Assembly (NCBI GenBank): GCA_001782035.1
Contig: MFNL01000001.1
Span: 277,012-341,011 of the forward strand
Source of the DNA: Candidatus Levybacteria bacterium RIFCSPHIGHO2_01_FULL_37_17
Lineage (GTDB): Bacteria; Patescibacteriota; Microgenomatia; Levybacterales; UBA12049
Length of the DNA: 64,000 bases
Direction of reading: 5' to 3'
Shown here: piece after piece, positions 37,615 through 61,603 of the stretch
How positions within the stretch are numbered: position 1 is the first letter of the stretch
Layout: the number at the start of each line of letters is the position of its first letter
The notes under the pieces: model-generated
What the model saw: the letters and a program-made list of their open reading frames with translations, nothing else
What the model was told of the DNA's origin: nothing
Database searches by the model: none
Program-made: the position numbers and the translations under genes

Positions 37615-38798
37615 AATTATTTAAGCTGATAGCGAGTTTATATTTTATTACTCTTGTTTCTTTATTTTTTTACTCTTTTACTCAGGTTGATTTAAGTCTT
37701 ACTCTAACCCAAGCGTCAATCTTCAAAGATATAATTTCCACTCTGCAATATTTGGGGTTTTTTCAGAGGGAACTATCCGCTATAATTTTTGCCCTAATAA
37801 GTTTTTTGCTTTTTTTATTCTATTTCCTTTTTCTTAATCAGTCCAAAAAAATCTCAGGGAAAATGCTTTTTTCATTAATTTGTGGTATCTTTTTCATTCT
37901 AGTTTTATCGTACAACGCTTTTTCTTATGATCTTTTTAATTATATTTTCGATGCCAAAATTTTAACTTTTTATCATCAAAACCCCTATCTTTTCAAGCCG
38001 CTGGATTTTATAGGAGACCCAATGCTTACTTTTATGCGCTGGACTCATAGGGTCTACCCTTATGGTCCAAGTTGGCTAGCTCTTACAGTTCCACTATCAT
38101 TCATAGGATCAAATATTTTTCTTGTGACCTTCTTCTTATTTAAGCTTATGATTGGACTAAGTTTTCTAGGAAGTGCTTTCCTTATTTATAAAATTTCAGA
38201 GTTAGTTAGTCCAGAAAATAAGATATTTAATACTTTATTTTTTGCACTTAACCCATTGGTATTAATAGAAGGGCTTGTTTCTGCGCATAATGATTTTCCT
38301 TTGGTATTTTTTGCCCTGCTTTCTTTCTACCTTTTTATAAGAAAGAAAAAAGTTTTTTCTTTTGTCTCTCTTGCTTTCTCAATTGGTATTAAATATTTAT
38401 CTTTTATACTACTTCCTATTTTTGGATATCTGATGATTTTAGAAAATAAAAAGATTAAGATTAACTGGGATAAAATTTTCCTTTTATCCCTTGCTCTCTC
38501 CTTAGTTACCCTTGCTCTCGTAACTTTTAGAACTAATTTTCAACCATGGTATCTTATATTTCCCATGAGTCTTGCTGCATTTAATGCAAAAAGACCCTAC
38601 GTCTTTCTTCCTGTTATAGTAGCATCTTTATCTATGATTGCCGTTTACTATTTTTATGTACTTCTTACAGATTATGCGCCTAATTATCCTGCAGTAATTA
38701 CAAGAGTTGAGACTTTGGCACTTTTTGCTGTTATTGTTTCTTTTATTATTGGTTTTTTATTTAAAAAAAGATTATTTAAGCTTTTGAATAACAGCTAG
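37611..38798 (+). CDS. polytopic membrane protein, GT-C-like (DUF2029/GT87-like?)
   Basis: ~10 TM helices, loop motifs YPYGP and NPLVLIEGLVSAHND; ATGA overlap with upstream GT2. Confidence 0.45.
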   Translation: MKLFKLIASLYFITLVSLFFYSFTQVDLSLTLTQASIFKDIISTLQYLGFFQRELSAIIFALISFLLFLFYFLFLNQSKKISGKMLFSLICGIFFILVLSYNAFSYDLFNYIFDAKILTFYHQNPYLFKPLDFIGDPMLTFMRWTHRVYPYGPSWLALTVPLSFIGSNIFLVTFFLFKLMIGLSFLGSAFLIYKISELVSPENKIFNTLFFALNPLVLIEGLVSAHNDFPLVFFALLSFYLFIRKKKVFSFVSLAFSIGIKYLSFILLPIFGYLMILENKKIKINWDKIFLLSLALSLVTLALVTFRTNFQPWYLIFPMSLAAFNAKRPYVFLPVIVASLSMIAVYYFYVLLTDYAPNYPAVITRVETLALFAVIVSFIIGFLFKKRLFKLLNNS

Positions 38799-38816
38799 AT
38801 ATTATATAATTCATGT

Positions 38817-40331
38817 ATGGGTTTTATCCGCAAATGGAGAACTGAAATCATTTTTGCGTTGCTTATTGCAGTAGCTTATTTTCTCTCCCGTATTGTACTT
38901 CTTGGTAATCTCCCTATTTTTACAGATGAGGCAATTTACACTAGATGGGCTCAAATAGCATTAAACGATCCCCAGTGGCGTTTTATTTCCCTAACAGATG
39001 GAAAACAACCGATGTTTGTTTGGCTAGCCATGATTTTTATGAAATTTATAGAAGACCCGCTAGTTGCCGCAAGGCTTGTTTCGGTTGCCTCAGGCTTTTT
39101 TACTCTAGTGGGACTTTGGTTTTTAACCTTAGAGCTTTTTAAAAGTAGAAAGGTAGCGTTTATCTCCTCGCTTCTTTATGTCGTCTATCCTTTTGCCGTA
39201 GTGCTTGACCGCATGGCACTATACGACAGTATGGTAGCAACATTTTTTGTTTGGGCGCTTTATTTCTCAGTTCTTTTAGTAAGAAGAATTAGACTAGATA
39301 TTGCCTATACGCTTAGTTTGATTATTGCAGGAGGAATGCTGACTAAAACCGCTAATTTCTTCAGTATATATCTGCTTCCTTTTTTGCTGATCCTTTTTAA
39401 CTTTAGAAAAAAGAATTGGCAGTTTGATTTGAGAAGATTTGTTTTATTTGCCGCTTTCTCAGCTGGCATAGCTTTTTTCTTATACAATGTTTTGCGACTT
39501 TCCCCATTTTTCCATATTATTGATCAAAAGAATGCCGTTTTCGTTTATCCATTCTCAGAGTGGATAAAGCAGCCATTTACTTTTTTCCCTGGAAATCTTT
39601 CAGGACTACTTAACTGGTTGTATGAGTATTTAAAAATTCCAGTCATTGTTTTAATCTTGATTTCACTTGTAAAGTATAAAGAGTTTACGAGAGAGAAATT
39701 ATTGCTTCTTGTTTATTTCTCTGCGCCATTTATTGCGTTGGCCCTCTTTGGAAGACTGGTTTACCCTCGTTATATTTTCTTTATGAGCCTAATGCTTCTT
39801 CCTCTTGCTTCTTTGGGTCTTACATATCTTGTTGATTACGTCATTAAGAAGTATAAAGTTTCAAAAAATTTAGCTTTTTACTTAATCACTGCATTGTTTA
39901 TTGCATATCCTGCTTTTGTTTCATGGCAGTTTATTTTTGATCCTGTAAACGCAAGAATAGCAACAGCGGATAACAGGCAGTATGTAAATGGTTGGCCCGT
40001 CGGATGGGGAGTTAGGGAAAGCGTTGAGTTTTTCAGAAATGAAGCAAAGAACGAAAAGATTTACGTAGCAACAGCTGGAACTTTTGGGCTTCTTCCGGCA
40101 GCTTTAGAGATATATTTAGTTGAGAACAAAAATATTGAGATAAAGGGGCACTGGCCGGTAGATGTATTGCCTAAAGAACTTTTGCAAAAGGCAGAAGATA
40201 TGCCTACCTTTTTAATTACATATCAGAAAGAAAACTTAAATCTAGACGATAACCCAAATTTAAATCTCGTGTTTCAGATAAGACAGGGAAACACAGACTT
40301 TTTTTATAAGGTATTTAGGGTAGAACCATGA
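38817..40331 (+). CDS. ArnT/PMT_2-like GT-C glycosyltransferase (GT39/GT83-like)
   Basis: First extracytoplasmic loop FTDEAIYTRWAQIAL (DE motif), 504 aa polytopic. Confidence 0.65.
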   Translation: MGFIRKWRTEIIFALLIAVAYFLSRIVLLGNLPIFTDEAIYTRWAQIALNDPQWRFISLTDGKQPMFVWLAMIFMKFIEDPLVAARLVSVASGFFTLVGLWFLTLELFKSRKVAFISSLLYVVYPFAVVLDRMALYDSMVATFFVWALYFSVLLVRRIRLDIAYTLSLIIAGGMLTKTANFFSIYLLPFLLILFNFRKKNWQFDLRRFVLFAAFSAGIAFFLYNVLRLSPFFHIIDQKNAVFVYPFSEWIKQPFTFFPGNLSGLLNWLYEYLKIPVIVLILISLVKYKEFTREKLLLLVYFSAPFIALALFGRLVYPRYIFFMSLMLLPLASLGLTYLVDYVIKKYKVSKNLAFYLITALFIAYPAFVSWQFIFDPVNARIATADNRQYVNGWPVGWGVRESVEFFRNEAKNEKIYVATAGTFGLLPAALEIYLVENKNIEIKGHWPVDVLPKELLQKAEDMPTFLITYQKENLNLDDNPNLNLVFQIRQGNTDFFYKVFRVEP

Positions 40332-41977
40332 AATTTCTAAAAAAGAATTTATTGCTTGTACTTCTTTCCTTAATTTTTGCTCTAAGTCTTTTTTTAAGGC
40401 TTTATCAACTAGAGTCTTTTCCAGTTGGATTTCACCAGGATGAAGCAGCCTTAGGTTACAACGCATATTCACTTCTTTTAACAGGGAAGGATGAAAATGG
40501 ACAAAGTTTACCATTGTACATCAATAAGTTTGGTGATAATAATCCCAGCGGATATCATTATCTAGCTATTTTATCTGTAAAATTTTTTGGACTTAATGAG
40601 TTTTCTACCAGGCTTCCCGCAGCTCTTGCGGGGGCAATGCTTATTCTAGCAATATATTTTCTTAGCTTTACAATTTCTAAAAACACCTTGATTAGTTTGT
40701 TTGCCGCTTTTTTTAGTGCCGTTGCCCCATGGAGCATAGTGCTTTCTCGAACTAGTGCTGAAACAATAGTTGCATTATTTTTTGCAATATTAGGTTTTGC
40801 TTTATTTATTCATTTTTTTAGAAACAAGAACATTTTATTTTTATCCGGAAGTGTTTTGTTGTGGATAGCATCGTTTTTAACATATCCAGCACCTCGTTTA
40901 TATGTACCTCTTTTAGTTTTAGCAACGGGAATATATGTATTTAAATATATAAGAGAGAAAAAATTACTAGTACCTTCGTTTGTTTCTTTCACAATACTTA
41001 TTGCTGTTCTTCTATTTCTTATTCTAGGAGTATCAGGAGGTATCGGTCGATTCTCTCAGGTAAGTATATTTACCCATCCTGAAACGAAGCTTGTTTTAGA
41101 AGAGCAAATCAGAGAAGACGGAATGGAGCAAATTCCTCCAACAGTTGTTAGAGCTTTTCACAATAAAATTATCAATCATTCTTATACATTTTTACTAAAT
41201 TATTCTTCTTATTTTTCCCTGGAGTATCTTTTCTTGAAAGGCGGACAACCATTACTCCTTAACGTGCCCCACATAGGGCTATTGTATTTAGTAGAGCTGC
41301 CTTTCATATTAATAGGAATTTATTCAGTAATAAGATCGAAAAATCACTTCTCCAAGCTTCTTTTGATTTGGCTTCTGCTTGCTCCAGCTACTGCAGCTAT
41401 AACATTTGATGATAGTCCAAATGTAAGAAGGGCTTTGGTAATGTTTCCTTTTATAGAAATTCTTGCAGGATACGGAATGCTTTTTTCTATTAAAAAAATT
41501 ACAGAAGAGAAGAATAAAAAAATATTTATTTCTATCTTTATGTTATTTCTTCTGTACAATTCTGTATATTTCCTACATCAATATTTTGTTCACACAAAAG
41601 TTCATAAACCATGGTTTAGAGATGTTGGAGTAAAAGAGATGGTAGCGGAGATAAAAAATTCATATCAAAACTATGACAAAGTTATTGTCACAAATGCTAC
41701 TAGAGGAATACATCCTTTAATCCTCTTTTACATGAAATATGATCCTGTGACGTATCAAAAAGAAGGTTCAGCCAAAGACGCGGATTATAGCGGATTTGGA
41801 AAATTCTTTTTTGTTCCACAGGACTGCCCGTCAGTAAATAGGGATCCTGATTTTCCTGATTTTAAATCTGCAATTTTTATAGATAAAGGAGTCTGCCCGT
41901 TTATTGAGGGGAAAAACTACGAAATAATATATCGAGGTGATAAAACCCCCGTGTATAGAATTGTCTATGAAGATTAA
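40328..41977 (+). CDS. ArnT/PMT_2-like GT-C glycosyltransferase, paralog A1
   Basis: GFHQDEAALGYNAYSLLLTGKDENGQSLPLYINKFGDNNPSGYHY loop-1 motif; 549 aa. Confidence 0.75.
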   Translation: MKFLKKNLLLVLLSLIFALSLFLRLYQLESFPVGFHQDEAALGYNAYSLLLTGKDENGQSLPLYINKFGDNNPSGYHYLAILSVKFFGLNEFSTRLPAALAGAMLILAIYFLSFTISKNTLISLFAAFFSAVAPWSIVLSRTSAETIVALFFAILGFALFIHFFRNKNILFLSGSVLLWIASFLTYPAPRLYVPLLVLATGIYVFKYIREKKLLVPSFVSFTILIAVLLFLILGVSGGIGRFSQVSIFTHPETKLVLEEQIREDGMEQIPPTVVRAFHNKIINHSYTFLLNYSSYFSLEYLFLKGGQPLLLNVPHIGLLYLVELPFILIGIYSVIRSKNHFSKLLLIWLLLAPATAAITFDDSPNVRRALVMFPFIEILAGYGMLFSIKKITEEKNKKIFISIFMLFLLYNSVYFLHQYFVHTKVHKPWFRDVGVKEMVAEIKNSYQNYDKVIVTNATRGIHPLILFYMKYDPVTYQKEGSAKDADYSGFGKFFFVPQDCPSVNRDPDFPDFKSAIFIDKGVCPFIEGKNYEIIYRGDKTPVYRIVYED

Positions 41978-43595
41978 AAAGCATTTCTTATTCCTTCTTT
42001 TAATTCTTGCCATAGCTTCAATATTGCGTCTATGGCAACTGGGAGTAAATCCTCCGAGTCTTGATTGGGACGAAGCCTCACTGGGTTACAATGCCTATTC
42101 AATTCTTAAGACCGGAGCAGATGAATATGGGAATTTTCTTCCAACTTCCATAAGGTCTTTCAATGATTATAAACCTGCAGCATATGTATATTTAACAATT
42201 CCATCTGTTTTTATATTCGGGCTCAACGAATTTGCCGTTCGTCTTCCGTCCGCAGCCTTGGGGATACTAACTGTTCTTTTCACATATCTTTTAGTCAAAG
42301 AACTATTCAAAGCTAAAAATTTACAATTTGCCGAAGCCGCAGCGCTTGTCAGCGCATTGCTACTGGCAATTTCTCCCTGGCATCTACAATTTAGTAGGTC
42401 AGCTTTTGAAGGAAACGTTGGGGTTTTCTTTTTTGTCGGAGGAATATATTTTTTACTTAAAGCTTTAAATAAAGGATTATTTTTTGCGCCTGCTTTTATT
42501 TTTTTCGTACTTACTTTTTACTCCTATCATAGTTTTCGGTTGGTAACTCCATTGTTTCTGTTGTTTTCCATATTTTATTTTAGAAAGGAAATATTGGAGA
42601 AAAAAAAGCATTTTCTTGTTTCCGCACTGTTTGCCTTGATCTTAACCCTGCCTTTATTGCTTAGTATTTTTACCAACTTAGCCCGTTTTTCAAGCGTTAC
42701 CATTTTTAATTCTTCAGGAATTCTCGATACATCTATAAAGCAGCTGGAACTAGATAGAGAAAGAGAAAATGTTCTTGGAGAGATTTTCCATAACAGAAGA
42801 GTGGTCTACGCGCAGAACATTTTAGATGGCTATCTTTCACATTTTGATCCTGTTTTCCTTTTTCTAAGGGGAGATTCGGTGGAACGGCATCATGCAATAG
42901 GAATGGGAATGCTTTATATAATTGAACTTCCATTTTTACTAGTGGGAATTTTTTATCTTTCGCGAAAAAAAGATACCGGAAGGCTTATTTTACTCATCTG
43001 GCTCTTAGCTGCACCTGCCGCAGCTTCCTTAGCAACGGGGACTCCCCATGCAATACGCGCTATTGCCATGATTCCTGTATTGCAAGTTATTACGGCTATT
43101 GGCATTGTCGCTTTCTACGAGTGGAATAAAAAGGCAAAATTAGGAAAATTTATTATTTTTACATTTTCCGCTTTGTTTTTATTAAATGCTCTTTACTATT
43201 TGGATATGTATTATGTCCACACACCTATTGAAAATTCAAAATACTGGCAATATGGATACAGACAAGTGTTTGAATATGCAAAGGAAAGGCAAGATAAGTA
43301 TGACAAAATAATCGTAACTTACAAATACGACCAACCATACATCTATTATTTGTTTTTTAATAAAATTGAACCGTCTTGGTACCAGAAGAATTGGGATTAT
43401 AACAATGATGGAGAAATAGAAAGAATGACCAGAATTATCGGAAAATACGAATTTAGAAATATTGATTACGCAGTAGATTCAAAGGCAAAAAATGTTTTGT
43501 TAATCGGGACACCTGATGAGATATCGCAGAATGCAAGCATAAAAGAAATAAATTTTTTGGATGGAACCGTTGCATTTAGGATAGCAGAAAGTTAA
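41967..43595 (+). CDS. ArnT/PMT_2-like GT-C glycosyltransferase, paralog A2
   Basis: LDWDEASLGYNAYSILKTGADEYGNFLPTSIRSFNDYKPAAYVY; start set at ATG overlapping upstream stop (ORF track 41937). Confidence 0.75.
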   Translation: MKIKKHFLFLLLILAIASILRLWQLGVNPPSLDWDEASLGYNAYSILKTGADEYGNFLPTSIRSFNDYKPAAYVYLTIPSVFIFGLNEFAVRLPSAALGILTVLFTYLLVKELFKAKNLQFAEAAALVSALLLAISPWHLQFSRSAFEGNVGVFFFVGGIYFLLKALNKGLFFAPAFIFFVLTFYSYHSFRLVTPLFLLFSIFYFRKEILEKKKHFLVSALFALILTLPLLLSIFTNLARFSSVTIFNSSGILDTSIKQLELDRERENVLGEIFHNRRVVYAQNILDGYLSHFDPVFLFLRGDSVERHHAIGMGMLYIIELPFLLVGIFYLSRKKDTGRLILLIWLLAAPAAASLATGTPHAIRAIAMIPVLQVITAIGIVAFYEWNKKAKLGKFIIFTFSALFLLNALYYLDMYYVHTPIENSKYWQYGYRQVFEYAKERQDKYDKIIVTYKYDQPYIYYLFFNKIEPSWYQKNWDYNNDGEIERMTRIIGKYEFRNIDYAVDSKAKNVLLIGTPDEISQNASIKEINFLDGTVAFRIAES

Positions 43596-43608: not shown

Positions 43609-45036
43609 ATGGCAAAAAGTAAAAAAGAAGTCGTCGTTTTAGGAGCAGGTCTTGCAGGGTTAGCATCTGCTCACGAATTAGCAAAAGCCGGTTACAAGGT
43701 TAGAGTTTATGAAATGTTTGATTTTATAGGTGGTTTGGCGGCTACCATAAGAAAAGGAGAATTCGCATTTGATACAGGTCCTCACCGCTGGTTTGCAAAA
43801 TCAGATTTCGTGAATAACTGGATGCTTGATTTAATGAAAGGCGAGATAAAAAGCGTCAAGCGGCTTACCAGAATTTATTTCGACAACAAGTACTTCTTTT
43901 ATCCTATTAAAATCTCAAATGCCCTTTTAGGTATTGGTCCAATTAAGGCTTTTATGGCTATTTTTGACTATGGTGTTTACAGAATACGAGCAAGAGTACT
44001 AAAGCCAAAAATTGTTTCTCTTGAAGACGGATTTGTAAATCAATTCGGCAGAACTTTATACAATACTTTCTTCAAAAGATACTCTGAAAAGCTTTGGGGG
44101 AGGCCCAATACACAGATTTCAGCAGATTGGGCAGGACAAAGAACTAGAGGTTTTAACCTTTTAACCGTAGTAAAAGATTCTCTATTTAAATCCAAAAAAA
44201 TTGTTTCTTTTGTTGATGAATTTCAGTATCCGGAAAAAGGCGTTGGAAGAATAGCGGAAAAACTAGCCGAAGAAGTTGAAAAAATGGGCGGAAAAATTTA
44301 CCTGAATGCAAAAGCAGTCTCTTTTAATGCAAACGGAAAAAACAAAATGACAGGTGTAGAAATAGAGGTAAAGGGAAAAAGGATAATGGAAACAGCCGAC
44401 TTTTATATAAACACAATTCCATTGCCACACCTGATTAAATTTATGAATCCGAAAGCACCAAAAGAAATTATCAAGGAAAGTGAAACGTTAAAATTTAGAT
44501 CCGAAGTACAAGTGGCACTATTTATTAAAAAAACTAATATTACACCTGATGTGTGGATTTATGTACATTCGAAAGAAATATCATTCATGAGGTTTATGGA
44601 AATGGATAATTGGAGTAATGTTCTTTCTCCCAAGGGTACTACTACTTTAGTTTTTGAAGTTGCTTGTAACGAAGATGATGAAACCTGGAACAAAAGCGAC
44701 AAAGAGCTTATTGAAATGGTTAAAAATGACTACATTAAAGAGTTTAAAACAATTGAGCAGAAAGATGTTTTAGGAGGTTATGTCCATCGTGTTCCCTTTG
44801 AATACCCTGTTTACCATATCGGCTACACCGATTCTTTGGATAAAATAAAAGAGTTCTTAGATAATTTTACAAACCTTCAGACAATAGGAAGAAACGGGAT
44901 TTTCAGATATAACAACATGGACCATTCAATAGAAATGGGCCTTTATGCAGCCTGGAATATAATTGAAGGTAAAAGGAAACATGATCCTTACTTGGTTAAT
45001 ATTGAAAGGGAATATCTTGAAGAAAAGAAGCTCTAG
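43609..45036 (+). CDS. FAD-dependent oxidoreductase (amine-oxidase/UDP-galactopyranose-mutase-like fold)
   Basis: N-terminal dinucleotide-binding VVVLGAGLAGLASAHELAKAGYKVRVYE...IGG; 475 aa soluble. Confidence 0.65.
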   Translation: MAKSKKEVVVLGAGLAGLASAHELAKAGYKVRVYEMFDFIGGLAATIRKGEFAFDTGPHRWFAKSDFVNNWMLDLMKGEIKSVKRLTRIYFDNKYFFYPIKISNALLGIGPIKAFMAIFDYGVYRIRARVLKPKIVSLEDGFVNQFGRTLYNTFFKRYSEKLWGRPNTQISADWAGQRTRGFNLLTVVKDSLFKSKKIVSFVDEFQYPEKGVGRIAEKLAEEVEKMGGKIYLNAKAVSFNANGKNKMTGVEIEVKGKRIMETADFYINTIPLPHLIKFMNPKAPKEIIKESETLKFRSEVQVALFIKKTNITPDVWIYVHSKEISFMRFMEMDNWSNVLSPKGTTTLVFEVACNEDDETWNKSDKELIEMVKNDYIKEFKTIEQKDVLGGYVHRVPFEYPVYHIGYTDSLDKIKEFLDNFTNLQTIGRNGIFRYNNMDHSIEMGLYAAWNIIEGKRKHDPYLVNIEREYLEEKKL

Positions 45037-46643
45037 TGAAAAAAGTTTATATTTATATTTTTATCCTTATAGCCTTGTCGCTTTTAGTCATTGGCCCTTT
45101 TTTTAAACCGGGATTTTTCGAGACCCATGATGGTGGCTGGGCAGTAGTACGCTTAGGGGCAATGCACAGAGCCTTTGCCGACCTTCATCTTCCGGCAAGA
45201 TGGGCAGGAGAGCTTAACTTCGGATATGGATATCCTCTTTTTGAATTTACCTATCCGCTACCCTATTATCTTGGTGAAGTTATAAACCTTTTAGGTCTTG
45301 GCTTAGTGGATTCAATAAAGGCAGTATTTGTCTTTAGTGTGCTTACCTCTGTAGTAGTGATGTTTTTTCTGTCAAGAAGAATATTTGGAAACCTAGGAGC
45401 ATTTATTTCTGCCGGTTTTTATTTATTCGCAAATTACAGATTAGTTAACCTTTACGTCAGGGGTTCTATTGGAGAATCCTTGTCTCTTGTTTTATTTCCT
45501 ATGCTCTTCTTTCTTGTTTTGTCTAGCATAAGTAAGCCTACAGCGGTAAAGACCTCTCTCTTTGCATTGTCTTTTGCTGCACTACTACTTACCCACAATG
45601 TTACTGCCTTGATTTTCAGTCCTTTTTTGCTTGCTTTCTATTTATTCCTGCTTTATCGGCAAAGAAATAGAGAAAATATTATACATATGATTTTAGGCTT
45701 TGGATTAGGCGGACTTATGTCATCTTTTTTTCTGTTTCCTGCGCTTCTTGAGAAAAATTATATAAGCCTGGGCGTTAATGCTATTAGTAACATAAAAGAG
45801 CATTTTTTATCTGTCCAGTCACTTATTTCAACTCCCTGGAACTACGGAGCCTTTGCCTCTTCTGAAAGATTTTCGGCTGAAATCGGGGCCTTCCCTCTGC
45901 TGGCATTTGTCTTAGCAATTTCTGTTCTTATAAAAATGAAAGATAGCTTAACCCGCAACGTTTTTTTGTTTTCATTCTTCAGCGTTATAATCCTTATTTT
46001 TCTGATGCTACCCTTTTCTTATTCTTTTTATAAACTTCCTCTTTTTTCAAATATCGATTTCCCCTGGAGACTCCTTACTCCTCTGATTTTTTTCCTCAGT
46101 TTTTCTCTTGGAATATTGGGAATGAAAAAAATATGGGGTTTAATAGGCCTGCTTTTGCTTATGGCAACTGCAATAATAAATCTTCCACATGCAAAGCCAA
46201 ATAATTACATTTCTTACCCGGATGAATATTACCTTACAAACCAGGCAACAACAACATCAAACGATGAGCTTATGCCTATTTGGGTAGAGAAAAAGCCAAA
46301 GCAACGGTACGAAAGAAAAGTTGAAGTATTGTCGGGAGATGCGGGTGTAAATGTTATTTCGCAAGAAACGGCAAAGACAGTTTTTGAAATAAATGCAGAA
46401 GAAGAAAGTAGAATTGCTCTTAATACAATATATTACCCTGGGTGGGAGTTAAAAGAGAATGGAAGTAAAATTGATTTCAGTTATGATAATCCAGAAGGTA
46501 TAATTGAGTTTGACATCAGAGAGGGGACGCATAGGATAACTGCAGAATTCAAAAACACGTCCTTAAGAAGCTTTGCTAATTTCCTATCGATACTGGGCAT
46601 CGCGGGGGTAATAATATTATGGGGGAAAAAGTTCGTAAAATAA
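45036..46643 (+). CDS. large polytopic membrane protein, PTPS-related (PF10131-like) family, putative GT-C-type transferase, paralog B1
   Basis: N-terminal FFETHDGGWAVVRLGAMHRAF...PARWAGELNFGYGYPLFEFTYPLPYY block; >12 TM plus C-terminal beta-rich domain. Confidence 0.5.
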   Translation: MKKVYIYIFILIALSLLVIGPFFKPGFFETHDGGWAVVRLGAMHRAFADLHLPARWAGELNFGYGYPLFEFTYPLPYYLGEVINLLGLGLVDSIKAVFVFSVLTSVVVMFFLSRRIFGNLGAFISAGFYLFANYRLVNLYVRGSIGESLSLVLFPMLFFLVLSSISKPTAVKTSLFALSFAALLLTHNVTALIFSPFLLAFYLFLLYRQRNRENIIHMILGFGLGGLMSSFFLFPALLEKNYISLGVNAISNIKEHFLSVQSLISTPWNYGAFASSERFSAEIGAFPLLAFVLAISVLIKMKDSLTRNVFLFSFFSVIILIFLMLPFSYSFYKLPLFSNIDFPWRLLTPLIFFLSFSLGILGMKKIWGLIGLLLLMATAIINLPHAKPNNYISYPDEYYLTNQATTTSNDELMPIWVEKKPKQRYERKVEVLSGDAGVNVISQETAKTVFEINAEEESRIALNTIYYPGWELKENGSKIDFSYDNPEGIIEFDIREGTHRITAEFKNTSLRSFANFLSILGIAGVIILWGKKFVK

Positions 46644-48277
46644 TACCTTTATTAATACTTTTAGTGCTTACAATTCCTGCATTTATGCCAGTGCTTGCTC
46701 CCGGATTTTTCCCAATGCATGATAATACTCAACCTTCAAGAGTATTTGAAATGGCAAAGGCCTTAATGGATGGTATGTTTCCTGTTAGATGGAGTGCTGA
46801 CTTGGGGTTTGGTTATGGTTATCCTCTTTTCAATTATTATGCTCCACTAGTATATTATGTTGGAGCTACCTTTAACCTAGCAGGATTTAACGCTTTAGAC
46901 GCAACAAAGATATTACTTGCCTTAGGATTTATTTTATCTGCATTAGCCATGTACATTTTTGCCAAAGAGTTTTTAGGCAAGCTTGGAGGAATTATAGCCG
47001 CACTTTTTTATGTTTATGCACCATATCACGCAGTGAATATATATGTTAGGGGAGCAGTTTCTGAGTTTTGGGCTTACGGGTTTATCCCACTTGCTTTTTG
47101 GGGGCTTTATAAGATTCATCAGACAGAAAAATTTAAGTATGTAGCTTTTACAGCCCTATTCTTTGCTCTTATTGTTCTTTCTCACAATTTGGCGGCGTTT
47201 ATCACTGCACCTTTTCTTCTTCTTTACTCATTTTTTCTTTTCTTTAAAAAAAGAAATATAAAACTATTTTATTCAGTTGGTATTGGTTTGCTGCTTTCCG
47301 CTTTTTATTGGGTCCCGGCTTTAATAGAAATCCCCTTTTTTAATGTCATGTCTCAAATAGGACCCGAGAAGGACATACGCTTTCATTTTGTGTGCTTACA
47401 GCAGCTCTGGACGAGCCAGTGGGGATTTGGCGGATCAATACCAGGGTGCGTTGATGGAATGTCCTATATGATAGGAAAATATCATATTCTTGCAGCAATT
47501 TTGGCTGTTATGGTAGCACTTCTGGAGTATAAAAATAAGAAAGTCGAGAAGGGTATTTTTCAAAACATTGTCCTATTCTTCGCTTTTGGAGTTTTAAGCA
47601 TTTTCTTGATGACGTCATACTCTCAATTTATTTGGGAGCTTGTTTCCCCTATGAGGTTTATTCAGTTTCCCTGGAGGTTTCTCCTGATAACGTCTTTTAC
47701 ATTTTCATTTGTTGCAGGATCATTATTTTACCTTTTTAGAAAGAGATTAAACTCTTTTTCGTATATCATACTTGCGTTAATAGTTTCGATTGCAATAGTC
47801 TTTCTCTATTCGAAGTTTTTTGTTCCTCAGGAGGCAAACTCTAAAAATGCCTCAGATTATGTTTCAAAAAATGCGTTAAATTACAATATTTCTAAAATAT
47901 CACACGAATTTATGCCAAGTAACTTCAAAATACCCGGAAATATAAATGAGGTTTCTAATCTCAATAATATTGAAGATGAAAGTATTGTAGTAGTTAATTC
48001 TAAAAAAAGGACTGGAAGAATCGAATTAAACTTAAGAGTTGAAAAAGAAACCAAAGCTGTTATTCCCATAGCTTATTTTCCCGCATGGAAAGCTTACGTT
48101 AACGGAGAGGAAGTTCCAGTCGAGAAGAATCCTCGCGGAATAAAAGTAAAATTGCCGGAAGGTAAAGTGATGCTAGAGTTTCTCTTCAGAGAAACTCTTC
48201 TGGAAAAATTTGCCAATGTCCTGAGCCTGGCTGGCGTACTAATACTGGCTTACGGTATAATAAGGAAGCCTAAATGA
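46619..48277 (+). CDS. large polytopic membrane protein, PTPS-related family, paralog B2
   Basis: FFPMHDNTQPSRVFEMAKAL...PVRWSADLGFGYGYPLFNYYAPLVYY, same architecture as 45036..46643. Confidence 0.5.
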   Translation: MGEKVRKIIPLLILLVLTIPAFMPVLAPGFFPMHDNTQPSRVFEMAKALMDGMFPVRWSADLGFGYGYPLFNYYAPLVYYVGATFNLAGFNALDATKILLALGFILSALAMYIFAKEFLGKLGGIIAALFYVYAPYHAVNIYVRGAVSEFWAYGFIPLAFWGLYKIHQTEKFKYVAFTALFFALIVLSHNLAAFITAPFLLLYSFFLFFKKRNIKLFYSVGIGLLLSAFYWVPALIEIPFFNVMSQIGPEKDIRFHFVCLQQLWTSQWGFGGSIPGCVDGMSYMIGKYHILAAILAVMVALLEYKNKKVEKGIFQNIVLFFAFGVLSIFLMTSYSQFIWELVSPMRFIQFPWRFLLITSFTFSFVAGSLFYLFRKRLNSFSYIILALIVSIAIVFLYSKFFVPQEANSKNASDYVSKNALNYNISKISHEFMPSNFKIPGNINEVSNLNNIEDESIVVVNSKKRTGRIELNLRVEKETKAVIPIAYFPAWKAYVNGEEVPVEKNPRGIKVKLPEGKVMLEFLFRETLLEKFANVLSLAGVLILAYGIIRKPK

Positions 48278-48990
48278 GTAAATTTGCGGAGTTATCGATT
48301 TTTTTTCCTTTCTGGAATGAGGCGGAAAATTTAGAAAGAGTCATAGAAAAAACAATCCCGGTGGCAGAAAAAGTTGCAGACAAGTGGGAAATAATTATGG
48401 TAGATGATGGCTCCTCTGACTCAACTTTGCAAATAATGCAAAAATTATCGGCAAAAGATAATCGCCTTATTGCGGTCTCCCACGATAAAAACCGTGGTTA
48501 CGGTGCAGCTTTGAAAACTGGTTTTGAAAAAGCAAGATATGAATATATAGTATTTAATGACGGAGATGGGCAGTTTGATTTTTCTGAAATTACAAAATTT
48601 ATGGATAAAATTGATAGGGCAGACGTAGTTATCGGCTACCGAAAGACAAGACACGACCATCCTTTTCGGCATGTCTTAATGAACTTGTTAAAAATTTGGG
48701 ATTATATTTTTTTCGGTTTTAGGTTTAAGGATATAGATTGCGGTTTTAAATTATTCAAAAGGCAAGCAATACAAAGGATAATTCCGCTTTCTTCGGAAGG
48801 CGCAATGATAACAACAGAGATTCTTGCAAGGGCAAAAAAGGCCAACCTTAACATTCTTGAGACAGAGGTTCATCATTATCCAAGATTATACGGCGACCAA
48901 AGCGGAGGGAACTTAAGGGTAATTTTGCGGGCGGTCAAAGAAAGTCTGCTTCTTTGGAAAGATTTAAATTTTAATCATGCAAGAAATTGA
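48274..48990 (+). CDS. GT2 glycosyltransferase, polyprenol-phosphate sugar synthase-like
   Basis: LSIFFPFWNE...IIMVDDGSSDST, DxD (NDGD); 238 aa. Confidence 0.8.
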   Translation: MSKFAELSIFFPFWNEAENLERVIEKTIPVAEKVADKWEIIMVDDGSSDSTLQIMQKLSAKDNRLIAVSHDKNRGYGAALKTGFEKARYEYIVFNDGDGQFDFSEITKFMDKIDRADVVIGYRKTRHDHPFRHVLMNLLKIWDYIFFGFRFKDIDCGFKLFKRQAIQRIIPLSSEGAMITTEILARAKKANLNILETEVHHYPRLYGDQSGGNLRVILRAVKESLLLWKDLNFNHARN

Positions 48991-50431
48991 CATAGCTGCA
49001 GTAAAGCAGAAATCTATTCATGGAATAATCGCTTTAACATCGCGAACATTTTTTATTCAGCTTGTAAATTTTTCGGCTAGTTTACTTCTCACAATTTTTC
49101 TGGCCCCTGCCATTTTTGGTGTTTTTTTTATCGTTTCAGCTGTTATTGCTTTTCTCACATATTTCTCCGATATAGGATTGGCTGCTGCTTTGATACAAAA
49201 AAAAGAAAGCTTAACAAAAGAAGATTTAAAAACAACATTCACAATCCAGCAGGCTCTAGTATTGTCCCTTGTTACTCTCGCGCTTTTATTTTCAGAGCGA
49301 ATAGGTTACTTTTACAATCTAGGAGAAGATGGTGTATTTCTATTTCAAGCATTAGCAATTTCATTTTTTCTATCTTCTTTAAAGACCATTCCCTCAATAA
49401 TTTTAGAACGTGATTTAAACTTTACAAAACTTGTAATTCCGCAGATTGTTGAAACTGTGTTTTTTAACGTTATTGCTGTAGGTCTTGCAATTAATGGATT
49501 TGGAATTGCAAGTTTTAGTTATGCAGTATTGGCACGAGGCTTTTCAGGTCTTGTAGCAATTTATTTAATAAGCCCTTGGAAGCCGGCATTAGGGTTTTCT
49601 TCCGTAAGCGCAAAAAAGCTTTTATCTTTTGGCGTACCTTTTCAGCTCAATAGTTTTCTTGCACTTATTAAGGACGATTTGTTTATCGCATTTTTGGGAA
49701 AAATACTTCCATTTGCCCAAGTTGGTTACATCGGATTTGCTCAAAAATGGGCATTTATGCCGTTGCGTCTCGTCATGGACAATGTAATAAGGATAACGTT
49801 CCCTTCATTCTCAAGGCTTCAAGATGAAAAGGAGATTTTAGGCAAAGCAATAGAAAAATCTGTATTTGCAGCAAGTTTTATCATTTTTCCCGCTCTGGCC
49901 GGTCTTTTTGTATTGTCGCCTTATTTCATAGAAATCATTCCGAGATACACAAAATGGGAGCCGGCACTTTTATCTGTATGGTTTTTCTCTTTGAGCGCCG
50001 CGCTTTCTTCTGTTTCAACACCCCTTACAAACGCACTTAATGCCATAGGCAAAATTAAGATTACCCTTTATCTTATGGTTTTTTGGACAATTGCTACATG
50101 GTCATTAACCCCGCTACTAATTTTTCTAATGGGATTTAACGGTGTTGCAGTCGCATCGGCAATAATTGCGGTTTCAACGATTGTGGTTGTATTTATAGTA
50201 AAAAGGCTTATTCAGTTTAATATAATAAATGCCCTAACCAATCCAGTAGCAGGGTCTATTATCATGGGAGCTATCCTTTTCTTTATAAGTCCTTATTTTG
50301 TACAGGGCTTGTTTAGTCTCATTTCCGTTATTGTATTCGGAGCTGTGATATACTTTTTAACAGTTTATATTCTAGGGCGGGATCAAATTAAGAAAGATTT
50401 TGTTTTAATCAGACAAAATCTAAGGAGTTAA
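48977..50431 (+). CDS. Wzx-like oligosaccharide flippase (MOP superfamily polysaccharide biosynthesis protein)
   Basis: 484 aa, ~12-14 TM helices with Wzx-like N-terminal pattern; embedded in GT cluster. Confidence 0.6.
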   Translation: MQEIDIAAVKQKSIHGIIALTSRTFFIQLVNFSASLLLTIFLAPAIFGVFFIVSAVIAFLTYFSDIGLAAALIQKKESLTKEDLKTTFTIQQALVLSLVTLALLFSERIGYFYNLGEDGVFLFQALAISFFLSSLKTIPSIILERDLNFTKLVIPQIVETVFFNVIAVGLAINGFGIASFSYAVLARGFSGLVAIYLISPWKPALGFSSVSAKKLLSFGVPFQLNSFLALIKDDLFIAFLGKILPFAQVGYIGFAQKWAFMPLRLVMDNVIRITFPSFSRLQDEKEILGKAIEKSVFAASFIIFPALAGLFVLSPYFIEIIPRYTKWEPALLSVWFFSLSAALSSVSTPLTNALNAIGKIKITLYLMVFWTIATWSLTPLLIFLMGFNGVAVASAIIAVSTIVVVFIVKRLIQFNIINALTNPVAGSIIMGAILFFISPYFVQGLFSLISVIVFGAVIYFLTVYILGRDQIKKDFVLIRQNLRS

Positions 50432-50432
50432 A

Positions 50433-51350
50433 ATGGCAAAACTTTCAGCAGTAGTAAGCGTTTACAACGAAGAAAAAAATATTGAAAAATGTCTAAAATC
50501 CCTCCAGTTTGCTGATGAAATTATTGTAGTAGACAATGGTTCAACAGATAAAACTGCAGAAATTGTCAAAAAATATACAGATAAAATCTTTTCACAAAAA
50601 AACGAACCTCAAAAGATTGATATTCTCAAAAATTTCGGTATCGAGAAAGCTACTAGTGAATGGATACTTATTATTGACGCGGACGAACAGGTAACTCCCG
50701 AACTAGCCAACGAAATCCGTTCAATACTCAAAGAACAAAGAACAAAGAACAAAGAACAAATTACTGGTTATTGGATACCTAGAAAAAATTATATTTTTGG
50801 AAAATGGATTCAGAACGCTGGCTGGTATCCTGATTTACAGCTAAGGCTAGTAAAAAGGGGTAAGGGAAAATATAATTCATTACACGTCCATGAGCCCTTG
50901 AAAGTGGAAGGAGACACAAAACAGCTCTCGCAATTTATAAACCATAACAACTACGAAAATATTTCTCAATTTCTTTCTAAAACTGCTGTTTATGCCCGAA
51001 ATGAAGCGGATTCTATTTTAAAAAATGATTATAACTTTTCTTATCTTGATGCAATAAGGTTTCCAATAAAAGAGTTTTTAAGCAGGTTCTTTGCAAGAAA
51101 AGGATATAAAGACGGACTTCACGGATTAATGCTTTCAATGCTTATGGCTTTTTACCATTTTATCATTTTTGCCTTCATATGGGAGAAGAAGGGATTTACA
51201 GAAGAAAACGCCGATAATTTCCTAGAAGAGGTAGGCGCTGAACTTAAAAGAGGTGGAAATGAAATAGATTACTGGATAAAAAAAGAAAAATACGACAATA
51301 TAAAAAACCCTCTTAAGAGAAGCCTCGCAAAAATTAAAGGAAAAATATAG
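50433..51350 (+). CDS. GT2 glycosyltransferase (subfamily with YWIPRKNY...PDxQLRL motif), contains heptanucleotide SSR
   Basis: LSAVVSVYNEEKNIEKCL...IIVVDNGSTDKT, DAD motif (IDADEQ). Confidence 0.8.
   Translation: MAKLSAVVSVYNEEKNIEKCLKSLQFADEIIVVDNGSTDKTAEIVKKYTDKIFSQKNEPQKIDILKNFGIEKATSEWILIIDADEQVTPELANEIRSILKEQRTKNKEQITGYWIPRKNYIFGKWIQNAGWYPDLQLRLVKRGKGKYNSLHVHEPLKVEGDTKQLSQFINHNNYENISQFLSKTAVYARNEADSILKNDYNFSYLDAIRFPIKEFLSRFFARKGYKDGLHGLMLSMLMAFYHFIIFAFIWEKKGFTEENADNFLEEVGAELKRGGNEIDYWIKKEKYDNIKNPLKRSLAKIKGKI
50729..50760 (+). repeat. (CAAAGAA)x4.5 heptanucleotide tandem repeat inside GT2 coding sequence
   Basis: caaagaacaaagaacaaagaacaaagaacaaa read directly; in-frame as KEQRTKNKEQ; unit length not a multiple of 3. 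Confidence 0.85.
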
Positions 51351-51353
51351 CTA

Positions 51354-52262
51354 GTGAAAAAAGTTTTTATTTCAATTCTTACTTTTAACGACAATAAGTC
51401 TACGTCAGAATGCTTGGATAGTATAGAAAATCTTAAGAAGCAAGACTTCGGGCTTTTTGTAGTAGTAGTGGACAACGCATCAGCAAACGCTTTTTCTGCT
51501 AAAAAAACGTACAAGAATTTTAGCCTAAAAATAATCAGAAATGAAAATAATCTTGGCTTTTCAGGGGGACACAATGTAGGAATTAACCATGCACTTTCTC
51601 AAGACGCAGATTTTGTAGTAATTCTAAATAACGATACAGTTCTTGGTAATAATCTGATAGTAAATATGCTAAGTGGATTTGATAAAGAGGTAGGAGTAGT
51701 TGTTCCTAAAATTTATTTTGCCAAGGGACACGAATATCATAAGGAAAAGTATACAGAGGCTGATTTGGGAAAAGTAATATGGTATGCAGGTGGAAAAATG
51801 GACTGGAAAAATATTTACGGTCAGCATATAGGAGTAGATGAAGTTGATAGTGAAAAATTTAATAAGGAAGAGGAAACAGAACTCGCAACAGGTTGCTGCA
51901 TGATGGTTAAGAGGGAGGTGTTTGGGAAAGCAGGTCTTCTAAATGAAAAATACTTTCTCTATTACGAGGATGCCGATTTTAGCATGAAAGCAAAAAGAAA
52001 AGGCTTTAAAATAATATATAAGCCGGATGCTTTTCTTTGGCACATAAATGCAGCTTCTACGGGAGGCTCTGGTTCCGAGCTTCAGGACTATTATATAACA
52101 AGAAACAGATTATATTTCGGTGTCAGACACGCTCCCTTAAGGGCAAAGGCAGCTTTATTTAGAGAAAGCCTAAGACTAGCAAGATCTGGAAGAAAATGGC
52201 AGAAAGAGGCTGTGAAAGACTTTTACAAAGGCATTATGGGTAAGGGGAGATATAAAAAATGA
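51354..52262 (+). CDS. GT2 glycosyltransferase (rhamnosyltransferase/WbbL-like)
   Basis: VVVVDNASAN motif, DxD (YEDAD), 302 aa. Confidence 0.8.
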   Translation: MKKVFISILTFNDNKSTSECLDSIENLKKQDFGLFVVVVDNASANAFSAKKTYKNFSLKIIRNENNLGFSGGHNVGINHALSQDADFVVILNNDTVLGNNLIVNMLSGFDKEVGVVVPKIYFAKGHEYHKEKYTEADLGKVIWYAGGKMDWKNIYGQHIGVDEVDSEKFNKEEETELATGCCMMVKREVFGKAGLLNEKYFLYYEDADFSMKAKRKGFKIIYKPDAFLWHINAASTGGSGSELQDYYITRNRLYFGVRHAPLRAKAALFRESLRLARSGRKWQKEAVKDFYKGIMGKGRYKK

Positions 52263-53014
52263 GTACTGTTGAAGTTTCAGTAATAATAATTGCACGAGAT
52301 GAAGAAGAAAGAATCAGGGAGTGTATTGAAAATTTATCTTTTTGCAAAGAAATCATCCTTGTAAATAACGATTCTCAAGACAAAACGCCCCAAATTGCTG
52401 AAAGCCTTGGCGCAAAGGTCGTAAATTTTAAAAGCAGTAATTTTTCAGAACTTCGCAATTTAGGATTAAAACAGGCGAGTTACAAGTGGATACTCTATAT
52501 AGACGCTGATGAAAAAGCGGATGAAACTCTTAAAAAAGAAATAGGCAGAGCAATAAATTCAGATGAATTTAACGCATATTTTATAAAGAGGAAGAATTAC
52601 TATTTAGGCAGTAACGAATGGCCATACGCAGAAAAAATACAAAGGTTATTTAAGAAAGATAAACTAGGTGGCTGGTTTGGACAACTTCACGAAAGTCCAA
52701 GCGTAGAGGGTAAGGCAGGGGAATTACAAGGTTTTCTTCTCCATAAAACCCACAGAAGCCTGGAGGAAATGGTAGATAAGACAAACGAATGGTCTGAAAC
52801 AGAGGCGTTTCTTAGATACAAAAATAATCATCCAAAAATGAGCTGGTGGAGATTCCCAAGAGTAATGATTACGGCTTTCCTTAGTTCATATATTGCCCAG
52901 GGGGGATATAAAGCAAAAGGAGTGGGCTTAATTGAGAGCATATACCAGGCGTTTAGTGCGTTTGTTACCTATGCTAAGCTTTGGGAATTACAAAAAAAAG
53001 AGGAAAAAAATTAG
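52259..53014 (+). CDS. GT2 glycosyltransferase (same subfamily as 50433 and 61604 genes)
   Basis: VSVIIIARDEEERIRECI...ILVNNDSQDKT, DAD (IDADEK), YFIKRKNYYLG. Confidence 0.75.
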   Translation: MSTVEVSVIIIARDEEERIRECIENLSFCKEIILVNNDSQDKTPQIAESLGAKVVNFKSSNFSELRNLGLKQASYKWILYIDADEKADETLKKEIGRAINSDEFNAYFIKRKNYYLGSNEWPYAEKIQRLFKKDKLGGWFGQLHESPSVEGKAGELQGFLLHKTHRSLEEMVDKTNEWSETEAFLRYKNNHPKMSWWRFPRVMITAFLSSYIAQGGYKAKGVGLIESIYQAFSAFVTYAKLWELQKKEEKN

Positions 53015-53247
53015 TTCTTATTTTCCCAGAATTTTAATTCGGAAAACTTCATTCGCTTATTGGCAAAATAGAATAGATATGCAAGTTCCAAAATTCCCAA
53101 TGTATTTAAAACTAAAATAGCAACGAACCAATTCCTCTGTTTTAAATTTGCTGCTCTCCAAAGAGCTATTCCTTTCCAAAGCAATGTCCAAAGATAAGCG
53201 ACAAAAAGCAGAAAAGAGGGAAGCTGGGGCAATATAAATGATTCCAT
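53011..53247 (-). CDS. small two-TM membrane protein, DUF5652-like
   Basis: LWTLLWKGIALWRAANLKQRNWFVAILVLNTLGILELAYLF resembles DUF5652 consensus from memory; only minus-strand gene inside the GT array. Confidence 0.4.
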   Translation of the reverse strand: MESFILPQLPSFLLFVAYLWTLLWKGIALWRAANLKQRNWFVAILVLNTLGILELAYLFYFANKRMKFSELKFWENKN

Positions 53248-53311
53248 AGATAAATTATAAATAAATATCTCTTCTTATGCAACGAGGGATGAAAGTTGAT
53301 AAAATAAATAT

Positions 53312-54364
53312 ATGAAAATAGGATTTTACGATCCATATCTTGATACCTTAGGTGGTGGAGAAAAATATATTTTTGATTTGGCGTTATGTCTTTCAAATGA
53401 TAACTCGGTTTATATTTTCTGGAACGATGCTTCAATTTTACAAAAAGCAGAAGAACGTTTTGGAAAAAAACTAAATAAGATTTCTCTTGTGCCAAATACA
53501 TTTTCTAAAGGAGCATCTTTATTTTCAAAATATAGACAAACCTCCAAATACGATTGTATTTTTTATATAAGCGATGGTAGCATTCCTCTTCTGTTTGCTG
53601 AGAAAAATATCCTTATCTTTCAGTTTCCAATACCTTGGATAAGAAAAACTTGGCTTTCAAATCTAAAACTAAAAAACATCAATAATGTAATTTGTTACTC
53701 CAACTTTGTTAAAGAGAATATCGACAAAATTCTAAATGTTAACTCTACAGTTCTTCCACCGCTTGTTGAGAAAATAAGTTCAAAAGAAAAAAAACAAAAC
53801 TTAATTGTTTCGGTAGGAAGATTTACAAAAGGCATGAACAAAAAAAAGCAAGAAGTGTTAGTTGAGGTTTTTAAAGAAATGGTAGATGACGGACTAAAAA
53901 ACTGGAAGTTAGTTTTAATAGGCTCTCATCTTGCAGGTGATTTGGATTTTGTAGAAAGCTTAATAAAACAATCTAATGAATACCCAATAGAAATACATAC
54001 AAACGTAAAATACGATGAACTTAGGGATGTATATGCCAAATCAAAAATTTACTGGCATGGCGCAGGCTTTGGAGAGAATCTTGAAAGATCACCTCAATTT
54101 GCAGAGCATTTTGGAATTACTACAGTTGAAGCTATGAGCGCAGGCTGTGTTCCGGCAGTTTTCAATGCCGGTGGACAGAAAGAAATAGTTACAAATGAAA
54201 AGAATGGAATTTTGTGGAATACGACTGTTGAGCTCAAGGAAAAAACAAAAAAGCTCATTGATGATGAAAAACTTCTGAACGAACTGTCTTTGAATGCTAG
54301 AAAAAGCTCTGAAAAATTTTCAGGTGATAATTTTTGCAAAGAAGCAAGAGACATAGTTCTTTAA
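53312..54364 (+). CDS. GT4 glycosyltransferase (GT-B, RfaG-like)
   Basis: C-terminal EHFGITTVEAMSAGCVPAV...GG motif (EX7E-type) typical of GT4. Confidence 0.8.
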   Translation: MKIGFYDPYLDTLGGGEKYIFDLALCLSNDNSVYIFWNDASILQKAEERFGKKLNKISLVPNTFSKGASLFSKYRQTSKYDCIFYISDGSIPLLFAEKNILIFQFPIPWIRKTWLSNLKLKNINNVICYSNFVKENIDKILNVNSTVLPPLVEKISSKEKKQNLIVSVGRFTKGMNKKKQEVLVEVFKEMVDDGLKNWKLVLIGSHLAGDLDFVESLIKQSNEYPIEIHTNVKYDELRDVYAKSKIYWHGAGFGENLERSPQFAEHFGITTVEAMSAGCVPAVFNAGGQKEIVTNEKNGILWNTTVELKEKTKKLIDDEKLLNELSLNARKSSEKFSGDNFCKEARDIVL

Positions 54365-61581: not shown

Positions 61582-61603
61582 GTATAATTAGTATAATAAC
61601 AGT

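Follow-up and report, generated by a model that had tools for sequence, protein, structure and literature searches.

Tandem PF10131-type paralogs in a Levybacteria glycosylation locus as predicted GT-C-fold glycosyltransferases

What is the role of two adjacent membrane proteins from an orphan family in the glycosylation locus of a Candidate Phyla Radiation (CPR) bacterium? The genes in question, here called A and B, lie in a stretch of 64,000 nucleotides from Candidatus Levybacteria bacterium RIFCSPHIGHO2_01_FULL_37_17 (contig MFNL01000001.1), to which we refer as the window. An earlier note on this DNA had described them as a tandem pair of "giant" paralogs of 535 and 552 amino acids. That observation is confirmed, and two adjacent open reading frames (ORFs) of these lengths were recovered with exactly the same boundaries. 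The interpretation offered in the note is partly supported: membership in the Pfam family PF10131 and the GT-C fold hold, while the functional clue seen in an adjacent FAD oxidoreductase fails. We propose, with a probability of roughly 0.7, that A and B are anciently duplicated GT-C-fold glycosyltransferases of the uncharacterised PF10131 family, and that they use a polyprenyl-phosphate-linked sugar.

In a BLASTP comparison, A and B were 32% identical along almost their entire length (E=2e-60), a similarity far beyond chance, and the two are thus true paralogs, as the description of a tandem pair implied. The word "giant" does not apply to them, as 535–552 amino acids is the usual size of GT-C enzymes. 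The genes are tightly packed in the window, which has a guanine-cytosine (GC) content of about 35%. The junction sequence shows an overlap of 25 nucleotides between the end of A and the start of B. The GTG start codon of A is overlapped by one nucleotide by the stop codon of the gene upstream, and the TGA of B and the ATG of the next gene overlap as ATGA. For comparison, we used 80 loci (a single locus for each species) taken from assemblies mostly of Levybacteria and Patescibacteria, annotated with the proteins of the window. The mean identity was 0.37 within the A-type proteins, 0.42 within the B-type proteins and 0.26 between the two types; the duplication is thus older than the diversification of these lineages.

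The Pfam scan assigned both proteins to PF10131 (PTPS_related) with bit scores of 35.5 for A and 39.8 for B, above the gathering threshold of 26.4 bits, which agrees with the resemblance to the 6-pyruvoyl-tetrahydropterin-synthase-related family that had been noticed before. Most of the homologs also carry a precomputed PF10131 match. The match is partial, covering only positions 1–314 of the 621 profile positions and approximately residues 71–405 of the proteins. The model begins at residue 71–73 or thereabouts, and both the N-terminal block with the HD motif and the C-terminal third of the chains fall outside it. A and B thus represent a short, divergent subfamily. The NCBIfam scan returned no model for either A or B.

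Structural models were built with AlphaFold2 from alignments of 44 and 46 sequences. The predicted local distance difference test score (pLDDT) was 88.8 for both models, and the predicted TM-score was 0.91 for A and 0.90 for B. In Foldseek searches of the models against the PDB, the matches with a probability of about 1.0 were exclusively GT-C enzymes, namely STT3, AglB, PglB, AftD, EmbA/B/C, ArnT, Pmt4, DPY19 and ALG12. Yeast and human STT3 chains ranked at the top for both models (E=5.6e-6 for the model of B), followed by AglB and PglB. The GT-C-like topology suggested in the note was thus borne out by comparison with solved structures.

Profile alignments with hhalign gave a consistent result. 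Residues 1–208 aligned with the PMT_2 paralogs encoded in the window (probability 94.8%, E=5e-8), with R144 of B placed on their invariant R154 and the HD motif within 2–3 columns of their DE motif. The C-terminal beta-sandwich (YFPAWKAYVNG...) aligned with the C-terminus of the YfhO protein of the window (E=2.3e-6), and this domain was the only part of the A/B family that aligned with that protein. The GT-C reading of A and B is supported by sequence, profile and structure.

The high ranking of the STT3 chains raises the question of whether A and B are oligosaccharyltransferases of the STT3/AglB/PglB type (GT66), which would transfer a whole diphosphate-linked oligosaccharide, assembled by the neighbouring GT2 and GT1 enzymes and translocated by Wzx, onto proteins. 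The locus does encode a Wzx flippase and several cytoplasmic glycosyltransferases, and A and B have in common with these enzymes a GT-C_A core together with a long, flexible loop on the outside. However, the TM-scores to STT3 (TMq 0.43–0.46) are no better than those to AftD, ArnT and Pmt4, and there is no detectable sequence relation; the match to the STT3 model of NCBIfam, TIGR04154, reached 14.7 bits against a cut-off of 450. A search with regular expressions for WWD, W[WF]D[YFW]G and DxD was negative for both proteins, which thus display neither a WWDYG-type nor a DxD/ExD motif. The C-terminal domain is a beta-sandwich of about 70 residues, common to YfhO, rather than the large outside domain of STT3, and the tightest neighbour of the pair is a GT2 resembling monosaccharide-lipid synthases. 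Based on the motifs and the domain architecture we reject this reading, which we consider highly improbable.

As judged from sequence profiles, the relation to PMT_2 is real but remote. Like ArnT and the PMT_2 and PMT proteins (GT83, GT39), A and B have an acidic residue soon after the first transmembrane helix, a conserved P..H..R stretch, a similar size and, at the profile level, a related N-terminal region of about 200 residues; ArnT is also a Foldseek match (TMq 0.41, root-mean-square deviation (rmsd) 8 Å). However, B scored only 17.4 bits against the PMT_2 model PF13231 (threshold 26.1 bits) and A gave no match, the first outside loop displays HD..R..PxRW..GYGYP instead of DE, and the C-terminal beta-sandwich and terminal transmembrane helix are arranged differently. 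The likeness to YfhO is confined to the beta-sandwich: the membrane core aligns with PMT_2, A and B are about 200 amino acids shorter than the YfhO protein of the window, and neither matches PF09586 at E≤0.1, weak precomputed PF09586 matches being found on some orthologs. The mycobacterial AftD and Emb enzymes (GT53 and relatives) are structural matches (AftD: TMq 0.47, rmsd 6.4 Å). They likewise act as many GT-C paralogs on one glycan from lipid-phosphate donors and have beta domains of the carbohydrate-binding type, and EmbA and EmbB form a heterodimer. In contrast to A and B, they are far larger, have several carbohydrate-binding modules, use a different donor pathway (decaprenylphosphoryl arabinose) and show no sequence similarity to our proteins.

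The topology was deduced from the DSSP strings of the AlphaFold2 models, hydropathy and the positive-inside rule. Each chain starts with a basic N-terminus and a transmembrane helix, followed by a first outside loop of about 50–70 residues that holds the conserved block, which is thus extracytoplasmic, as had been claimed. About 10 more helices follow, in which short loops rich in K and R (KEFLGK, QTEKFK, FFKKRNIK, EYKNKKVEKG, FRKRLNS) alternate with longer conserved loops. The C-terminal part consists of an outside region of about 125 residues with the beta-sandwich, a last transmembrane helix and a basic tail; in A, a hydrophobic segment at residues 510–528 precedes the K/R-rich tail. A shared extracytoplasmic C-terminal domain had also been proposed; this holds for the common beta-sandwich, but not for the ends of the chains, which reach the cytoplasm via the last helix and the K/R-rich tail. 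From the K/R-rich short loops and the basic termini it follows that all of the conserved polar residues face the outside.

Residue conservation was analyzed in 380 relatives (169 A-type and 211 B-type proteins, numbered as in B), and the two clades were compared through 49 species pairs, each with an A-type and a B-type ortholog. Within the first outside loop, H34 was conserved in 92%, D35 and R41 in 99%, R57 in 100% and G67, Y68 and P69 in 97–99% of the relatives. Further along the chain, the values were 99% for K97, R144 and E149, 100% for H189, 98% for N190 and E237, 99% for W352, 89% for R353, 97% for E430 and 99% for P488 and W490. Seven positions of the N-terminal block were conserved at ≥95% in both clades (A/B numbering: D32/35, R39/41, P53/55, R55/57, G65/67, Y66/68, P67/69). 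The shared block is thus present in A and B and is kept across the species pairs as well as the relatives. The motif HD...H..R given for it in the note stands in part: the first H, the D and the R are kept, whereas the second H (AMHRAF in A) is not and corresponds to MAKAL in B.

D35 of B (D32 of A) is located nine residues past the first transmembrane helix, and A and B thus have an acidic residue early in the first outside loop. A conserved catalytic aspartate just after this helix is typical of solved GT-C structures (PMC11127046). The suggestion that the HD and R residues are candidate ligands agrees with their conservation and outside-facing location, as expected of catalytic or phosphate-binding residues. 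We suggest that the first outside loop and the ends of neighbouring loops make up the active site, in which D35 (D32 in A) may act as catalytic base or metal ligand and the donor phosphate may be held by R41, R57, K97, R144 and R353 as candidates. E149, H189/N190, E237 and E430 would be additional outside-facing polar residues near this site, and the C-terminal beta-sandwich with its P-x-W motif may bind the acceptor. The mapped conserved residues would carry out catalysis.

The B-type proteins have a motif of their own, F-x-C-x2-QLW-x3-WGxGGS..C-x-DG-x-S, in the loop at residues 248–286 (C259 and C277 were each conserved in 76%), of which there is none in the A-type proteins. A also evolves faster than B, and a review has speculated that GT-C enzymes of small size may depend on another protein to bind the acceptor (PMC8035078). 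A could therefore be seen as a dead partner, that is, a pseudoenzyme for acceptor binding or a scaffold, or both proteins as non-transferases, for instance flippase accessories like Agl23. However, A retains at ≥95% all of the polar residues common to both clades (D32, R39, R55, K95, R142, E147, H187, N188 and E411), which makes a dead enzyme unlikely, and the models of both proteins display the full GT-C architecture. Pseudoenzyme status of A was rejected on residue conservation, and we regard this whole set of explanations as extremely improbable.

If A and B are GT-C glycosyltransferases, where does the sugar come from? The note had placed the pair inside a lipid-linked glycosylation array, and its neighbours are indeed GT2, Wzx and GT-C genes. 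The conserved order is GT2 - MptA_B-like - PMT_2 - [YfhO] - [PMT_2 x2] - A - B - GT2(~240 aa) - Wzx - GT2 x3 - [YfhO] - GT1 - YfhO, and the segment A, B, GT2 of about 240 amino acids and Wzx is kept in about 80 Levybacteria/Patescibacteria genomes. This small GT2 gene directly follows B in 72 of 75 loci, and Wzx is found within 1.5 kb of B in 65 of 69. These two downstream genes, which the note had not singled out, are the informative conserved neighbours. In the window, the GT2 has 238 amino acids and no transmembrane segment. It matched the NCBIfam models ArnC, PgfS, AglJ and PpgS and, in the PDB, ArnC (6e-23), the Pyrococcus DPMS (5mlz) and GtrB (5ekp). It is thus closest to polyprenyl- and dolichyl-phosphate sugar synthases, which makes it the likely donor-making partner of A and B.

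Multi-component transmembrane glycosylation systems have been described in which a sugar is loaded onto undecaprenyl phosphate (C55-P) by a GT-A enzyme, brought to the outer side by a flippase and added there to a wall polymer by a GT-C enzyme; examples are GacI/GacJ/GacK/GacL, with GacK as the Wzx-type flippase in S. pyogenes, and CsbB/GtcA/YfhO (PMC8035078). The Pgf system of S. mutans has one GT-A enzyme (PgfS) and two GT-C paralogs (PgfM1 and PgfM2) and acts on Ser/Thr-rich proteins (PMC12041528). The window, with A, B, the 238-residue GT2 and Wzx in this order, likewise has a lipid-phosphate sugar synthase, a flippase and GT-C transferases side by side; the GT2 lacks transmembrane helices like GacI, and A and B form a pair of GT-C paralogs like PgfM1 and PgfM2. 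The host differs from those of the Gram-positive systems in being a CPR bacterium with an uncharacterised envelope, and no GacJ-like partner was identified here. An ORF of 78 amino acids with two hydrophobic segments lies between a GT2 gene and the GT1 gene, at a position where orthologous loci have a DUF5652 gene; by analogy with GacJ and GacI, it could serve the soluble GT2 as a small partner in the membrane.

Since the arrangement matches these systems, we propose the following steps. The 238-residue GT2 would use a nucleotide sugar to charge polyprenyl phosphate on the cytoplasmic side, the adjacent Wzx-type flippase would carry the lipid-linked sugar across the membrane, and A and B would pass it to an extracytoplasmic acceptor. 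A lipid-phosphate-linked donor and catalysis at the outer face are suggested by the ArnC/DPMS/GtrB-like GT2, by the flippase and by the conserved residues lying on the outside. The acceptor is most likely a surface glycan or lipoglycan and less likely a Ser/Thr-rich surface protein, because the beta-sandwich is shared with YfhO and the locus contains many other GT-C genes. B would be the constant core enzyme, since it forms one tight clade that is always next to the GT2. A would be a further active enzyme whose set of loops differs, probably making a different linkage or acting at a different site, and possibly in complex with B.

Transfer of single sugars is not the only activity compatible with this arrangement. 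Processive polymerization, as by MptA or EmbC, would have A and B make a homopolymer, such as the backbone of a lipoglycan or wall glycan, from polyprenyl-phosphate sugars rather than single decorations. This would be in line with a locus that contains as many as 11 GT-C genes, one of them MptA_B-like, with AftD and Emb among the structural matches, and with a beta-sandwich that could grip a growing chain. However, the closest analogues in gene order, namely those of Gac, Pgf and YfhO, act as decorating enzymes, and the sequence does not tell processive from single-addition transfer. We regard processive synthesis as unlikely.

How closely A and B work together is a further question. B-type genes were found in the slot before the small GT2 in 79 of 79 cases, and the gene directly upstream of B belonged to clade A in 64 of 64. 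The A–B and B–GT2 junctions across the loci are mostly overlaps of four nucleotides, suggesting translational coupling. A natural A–B fusion was also identified (P0241, L085:6001-9351), an uninterrupted ORF of 1116 amino acids on a contig with 60% GC. Its first half is A-type (483 vs 364 bits) and its second half B-type (565 vs 310 bits), with PMT_2 genes upstream and Wzx and GT2 genes downstream. The last transmembrane helix of A is joined by "RKR" to the first transmembrane helix of B, which gives a consistent topology. The fusion is a hint that A and B cooperate physically. Among the other fused proteins, P0340 has a GT2 domain joined to a B-type GT-C protein, and P0243 (3329 amino acids) and P0255 (1670 amino acids) each contain several stretches that resemble GT-C proteins, but may be artefacts of gene calling.

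An obligate A–B heterodimer, comparable to Pmt1–Pmt2 or EmbA–EmbB and with the pair as the functional enzyme, would account for the strict order and the overlaps. It would also be compatible with the single-chain fusion, given that A ends inside and B starts inside, and GT-C heterodimers (6p25, 7bvc/7bvf) are among the structural matches. On the other hand, the clear fusion is a single case among 150 representatives, clade A consists of two subclades and evolves faster than B, and a third paralog clade occurs elsewhere in the locus in 11 loci. Moreover, the stretches fetched for four loci (L027, L032, L039 and L079) contain B without any A-type gene, and three PMT_2 genes separate A from B in L034. 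These five loci suggest that cooperation of A and B is not obligatory, and we consider an obligate heterodimer possible but doubtful.

The same five loci also weigh against our proposal that A and B are GT-C transferases served by the neighbouring GT2, as do the following points. The GT2 after B is divergent in about 20 loci (L016–L020, L024, L028, L034, L035 and others), scoring 50–70 bits against the GT2 of the window, and the sugar donor may be a different one there. The cargo of the Wzx protein may instead be a diphosphate-linked oligosaccharide that the GT2 and GT1 enzymes nearby produce. The likeness of the models to solved GT-C enzymes is moderate in the Foldseek comparisons (TM-score 0.38–0.47, rmsd 6–13 Å), searches of PDB sequences with B alone or with the family profile found no meaningful relative, and D35 is not exactly aligned with the DE motif of the PMT_2 proteins in hhalign. 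Finally, the literature found contains no biochemical data on PF10131 members.

The literature on PF10131 and PTPS-related names yielded solely a listing as "function unknown" in the GT-C clan CL0111, consistent with the earlier description of a family with no demonstrated function; nothing specific was found in the literature on GT-C enzymes in CPR bacteria or on new GT-C families. A profile search of 1.8 billion representatives (clusters at 50% identity) yielded 26,062 cluster representatives at E≤1e-3, of which 7,745 reached E≤1e-30. The PF10131-type family is thus very large, with no member characterised and no structure solved. A and B are new members of the GT-C glycosyltransferases from an orphan Pfam family, with a conventional operon logic, and the biochemistry to be expected is conventional for GT-C enzymes. 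The value of the locus lies in the strict A–B synteny, the fusion, the size of the uncharacterised family and a residue map that offers a testable active site (D35, R41, R57, K97, R144, E149, H189, E237, R353 and E430). The analysis also provides a likely donor-making partner, the GT2, and a conserved operon open to heterologous expression.

A more far-reaching proposal, which we consider tentative and rather unlikely, is that A and B form the heteromeric GT-C core, and a new CAZy family, of an envelope-glycan pathway found mainly in Patescibacteria (CPR). Together with about nine other GT-C proteins of the locus, they would build a lipoglycan or wall polymer wholly on the outer face from polyprenyl-phosphate sugars. 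If true, ultra-small bacteria would have an extracytoplasmic assembly line of the mycobacterial style. The reduced CPR genome has at least 11 GT-C genes within 64 kb, a sign of an elaborate surface glycan that may matter for a host-attached lifestyle.

The features of the window are listed in Table 1.

Table 1. Positions in the 64,000-nucleotide window of the A/B gene pair, its protein segments, the neighbouring genes and other features.
Feature	Position	Strand	Basis or remark
UDP-galactopyranose-mutase-like flavoprotein, adjoins A	43609..45036	+	NCBIfam NF005548 (PRK07208, "hypothetical protein"), 436 bits
ORF A, 535 aa, upstream paralog ("A clade"), predicted PF10131-type GT-C membrane glycosyltransferase	45036..46643	+	GTG start
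A, first extracytoplasmic loop, residues 24–78, block HD32..R39..P53-x-R55..G65-Y66-P67	45105..45269	+	Conservation; after first transmembrane helix by DSSP
A, C-terminal beta-sandwich (residues 429–505) and transmembrane helix (residues 509–534)	46320..46637	+	DSSP of AlphaFold2 model
ORF B, 552 aa, paralog B ("core B clade"), predicted PF10131-type GT-C membrane glycosyltransferase	46619..48277	+	ATG start
B, first extracytoplasmic loop, residues 27–80, H34-D35..R41..M45..P55-x-R57-W58..G65-x-G67-Y68-P69-x-F71	46697..46858	+	Invariant columns
B, long flexible outside loop, residues 248–286, B-specific motif	47360..47476	+	pLDDT 56–64
B, C-terminal beta-sandwich (residues 456–523, P488-x-W490) and transmembrane helix (residues 527–549)	47984..48265	+	DSSP, hhalign
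Soluble GT2, 238 aa, candidate polyprenyl-phosphate sugar synthase (donor maker)	48274..48990	+	Pfam GT2
Wzx/MOP-family flippase	48977..50431	+	Pfam Polysacc_synt_3, 171 bits; NCBIfam MOP flippase, O-glycosylation Wzx
Upstream syntenic GT-C genes: MptA_B-like (395 aa) and three PMT_2/PMT-type	37611..43595	+	
Downstream syntenic genes: three GT2, small ORF with two transmembrane segments (minus strand), GT1, YfhO-type GT-C	50433..56634	+	
ORF of 78 aa	53011-53247	-	Two hydrophobic segments
GT-C genes of the window	4988-6586, 37611-43595, 45036-48277, 54334-56634, 58278-63984		
GT2 fused to GtrA/DPMS transmembrane domain	3879-5009		
PMT_2 GT-C gene	4988-6586		
ORF of 527 aa	62401-63984		hhalign to PMT_2, probability 95%
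ORF of 1360 aa	28040-32122	-	GC 0.42

The flavoprotein gene that adjoins A had been taken in the note as an FAD oxidoreductase whose position was a clue to the function of the pair. Its best solved relative is a eukaryote-type UDP-galactopyranose mutase (4dsg, E=4e-19), aligned over residues 7–451, the full length. No homolog was found in any of the 84 related loci. The gene is present only in a relative with 83% identity (L086) and absent from relatives with 54–56% identity, and the proposed clue is thereby lost. The gene is a recent insertion specific to this lineage. Rather than a redox partner of A and B, its product is probably a sugar-nucleotide mutase-like enzyme, which probably supplies a furanose nucleotide sugar.

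A few minor observations concern the loci and the window as a whole. Many of the metagenome-assembled genome records behind loci L010–L083 are titled "uncultured Gammaproteobacteria bacterium", which looks like a problem of source labelling. The window holds at least 11 GT-C genes, comprising six of the PMT_2/PMT type, one MptA_B-like, the two PF10131 genes, one YfhO and the ORF of 527 amino acids, which has no Pfam match and was related to PMT_2 by hhalign. The GT2 fused to a GtrA/DPMS transmembrane domain is followed by a PMT_2 GT-C gene, and the two make up a separate compact unit of a lipid-phosphate-sugar synthase and a GT-C enzyme. The ORF of 1360 amino acids lies in a stretch of higher GC content than the approximately 0.35 found elsewhere.

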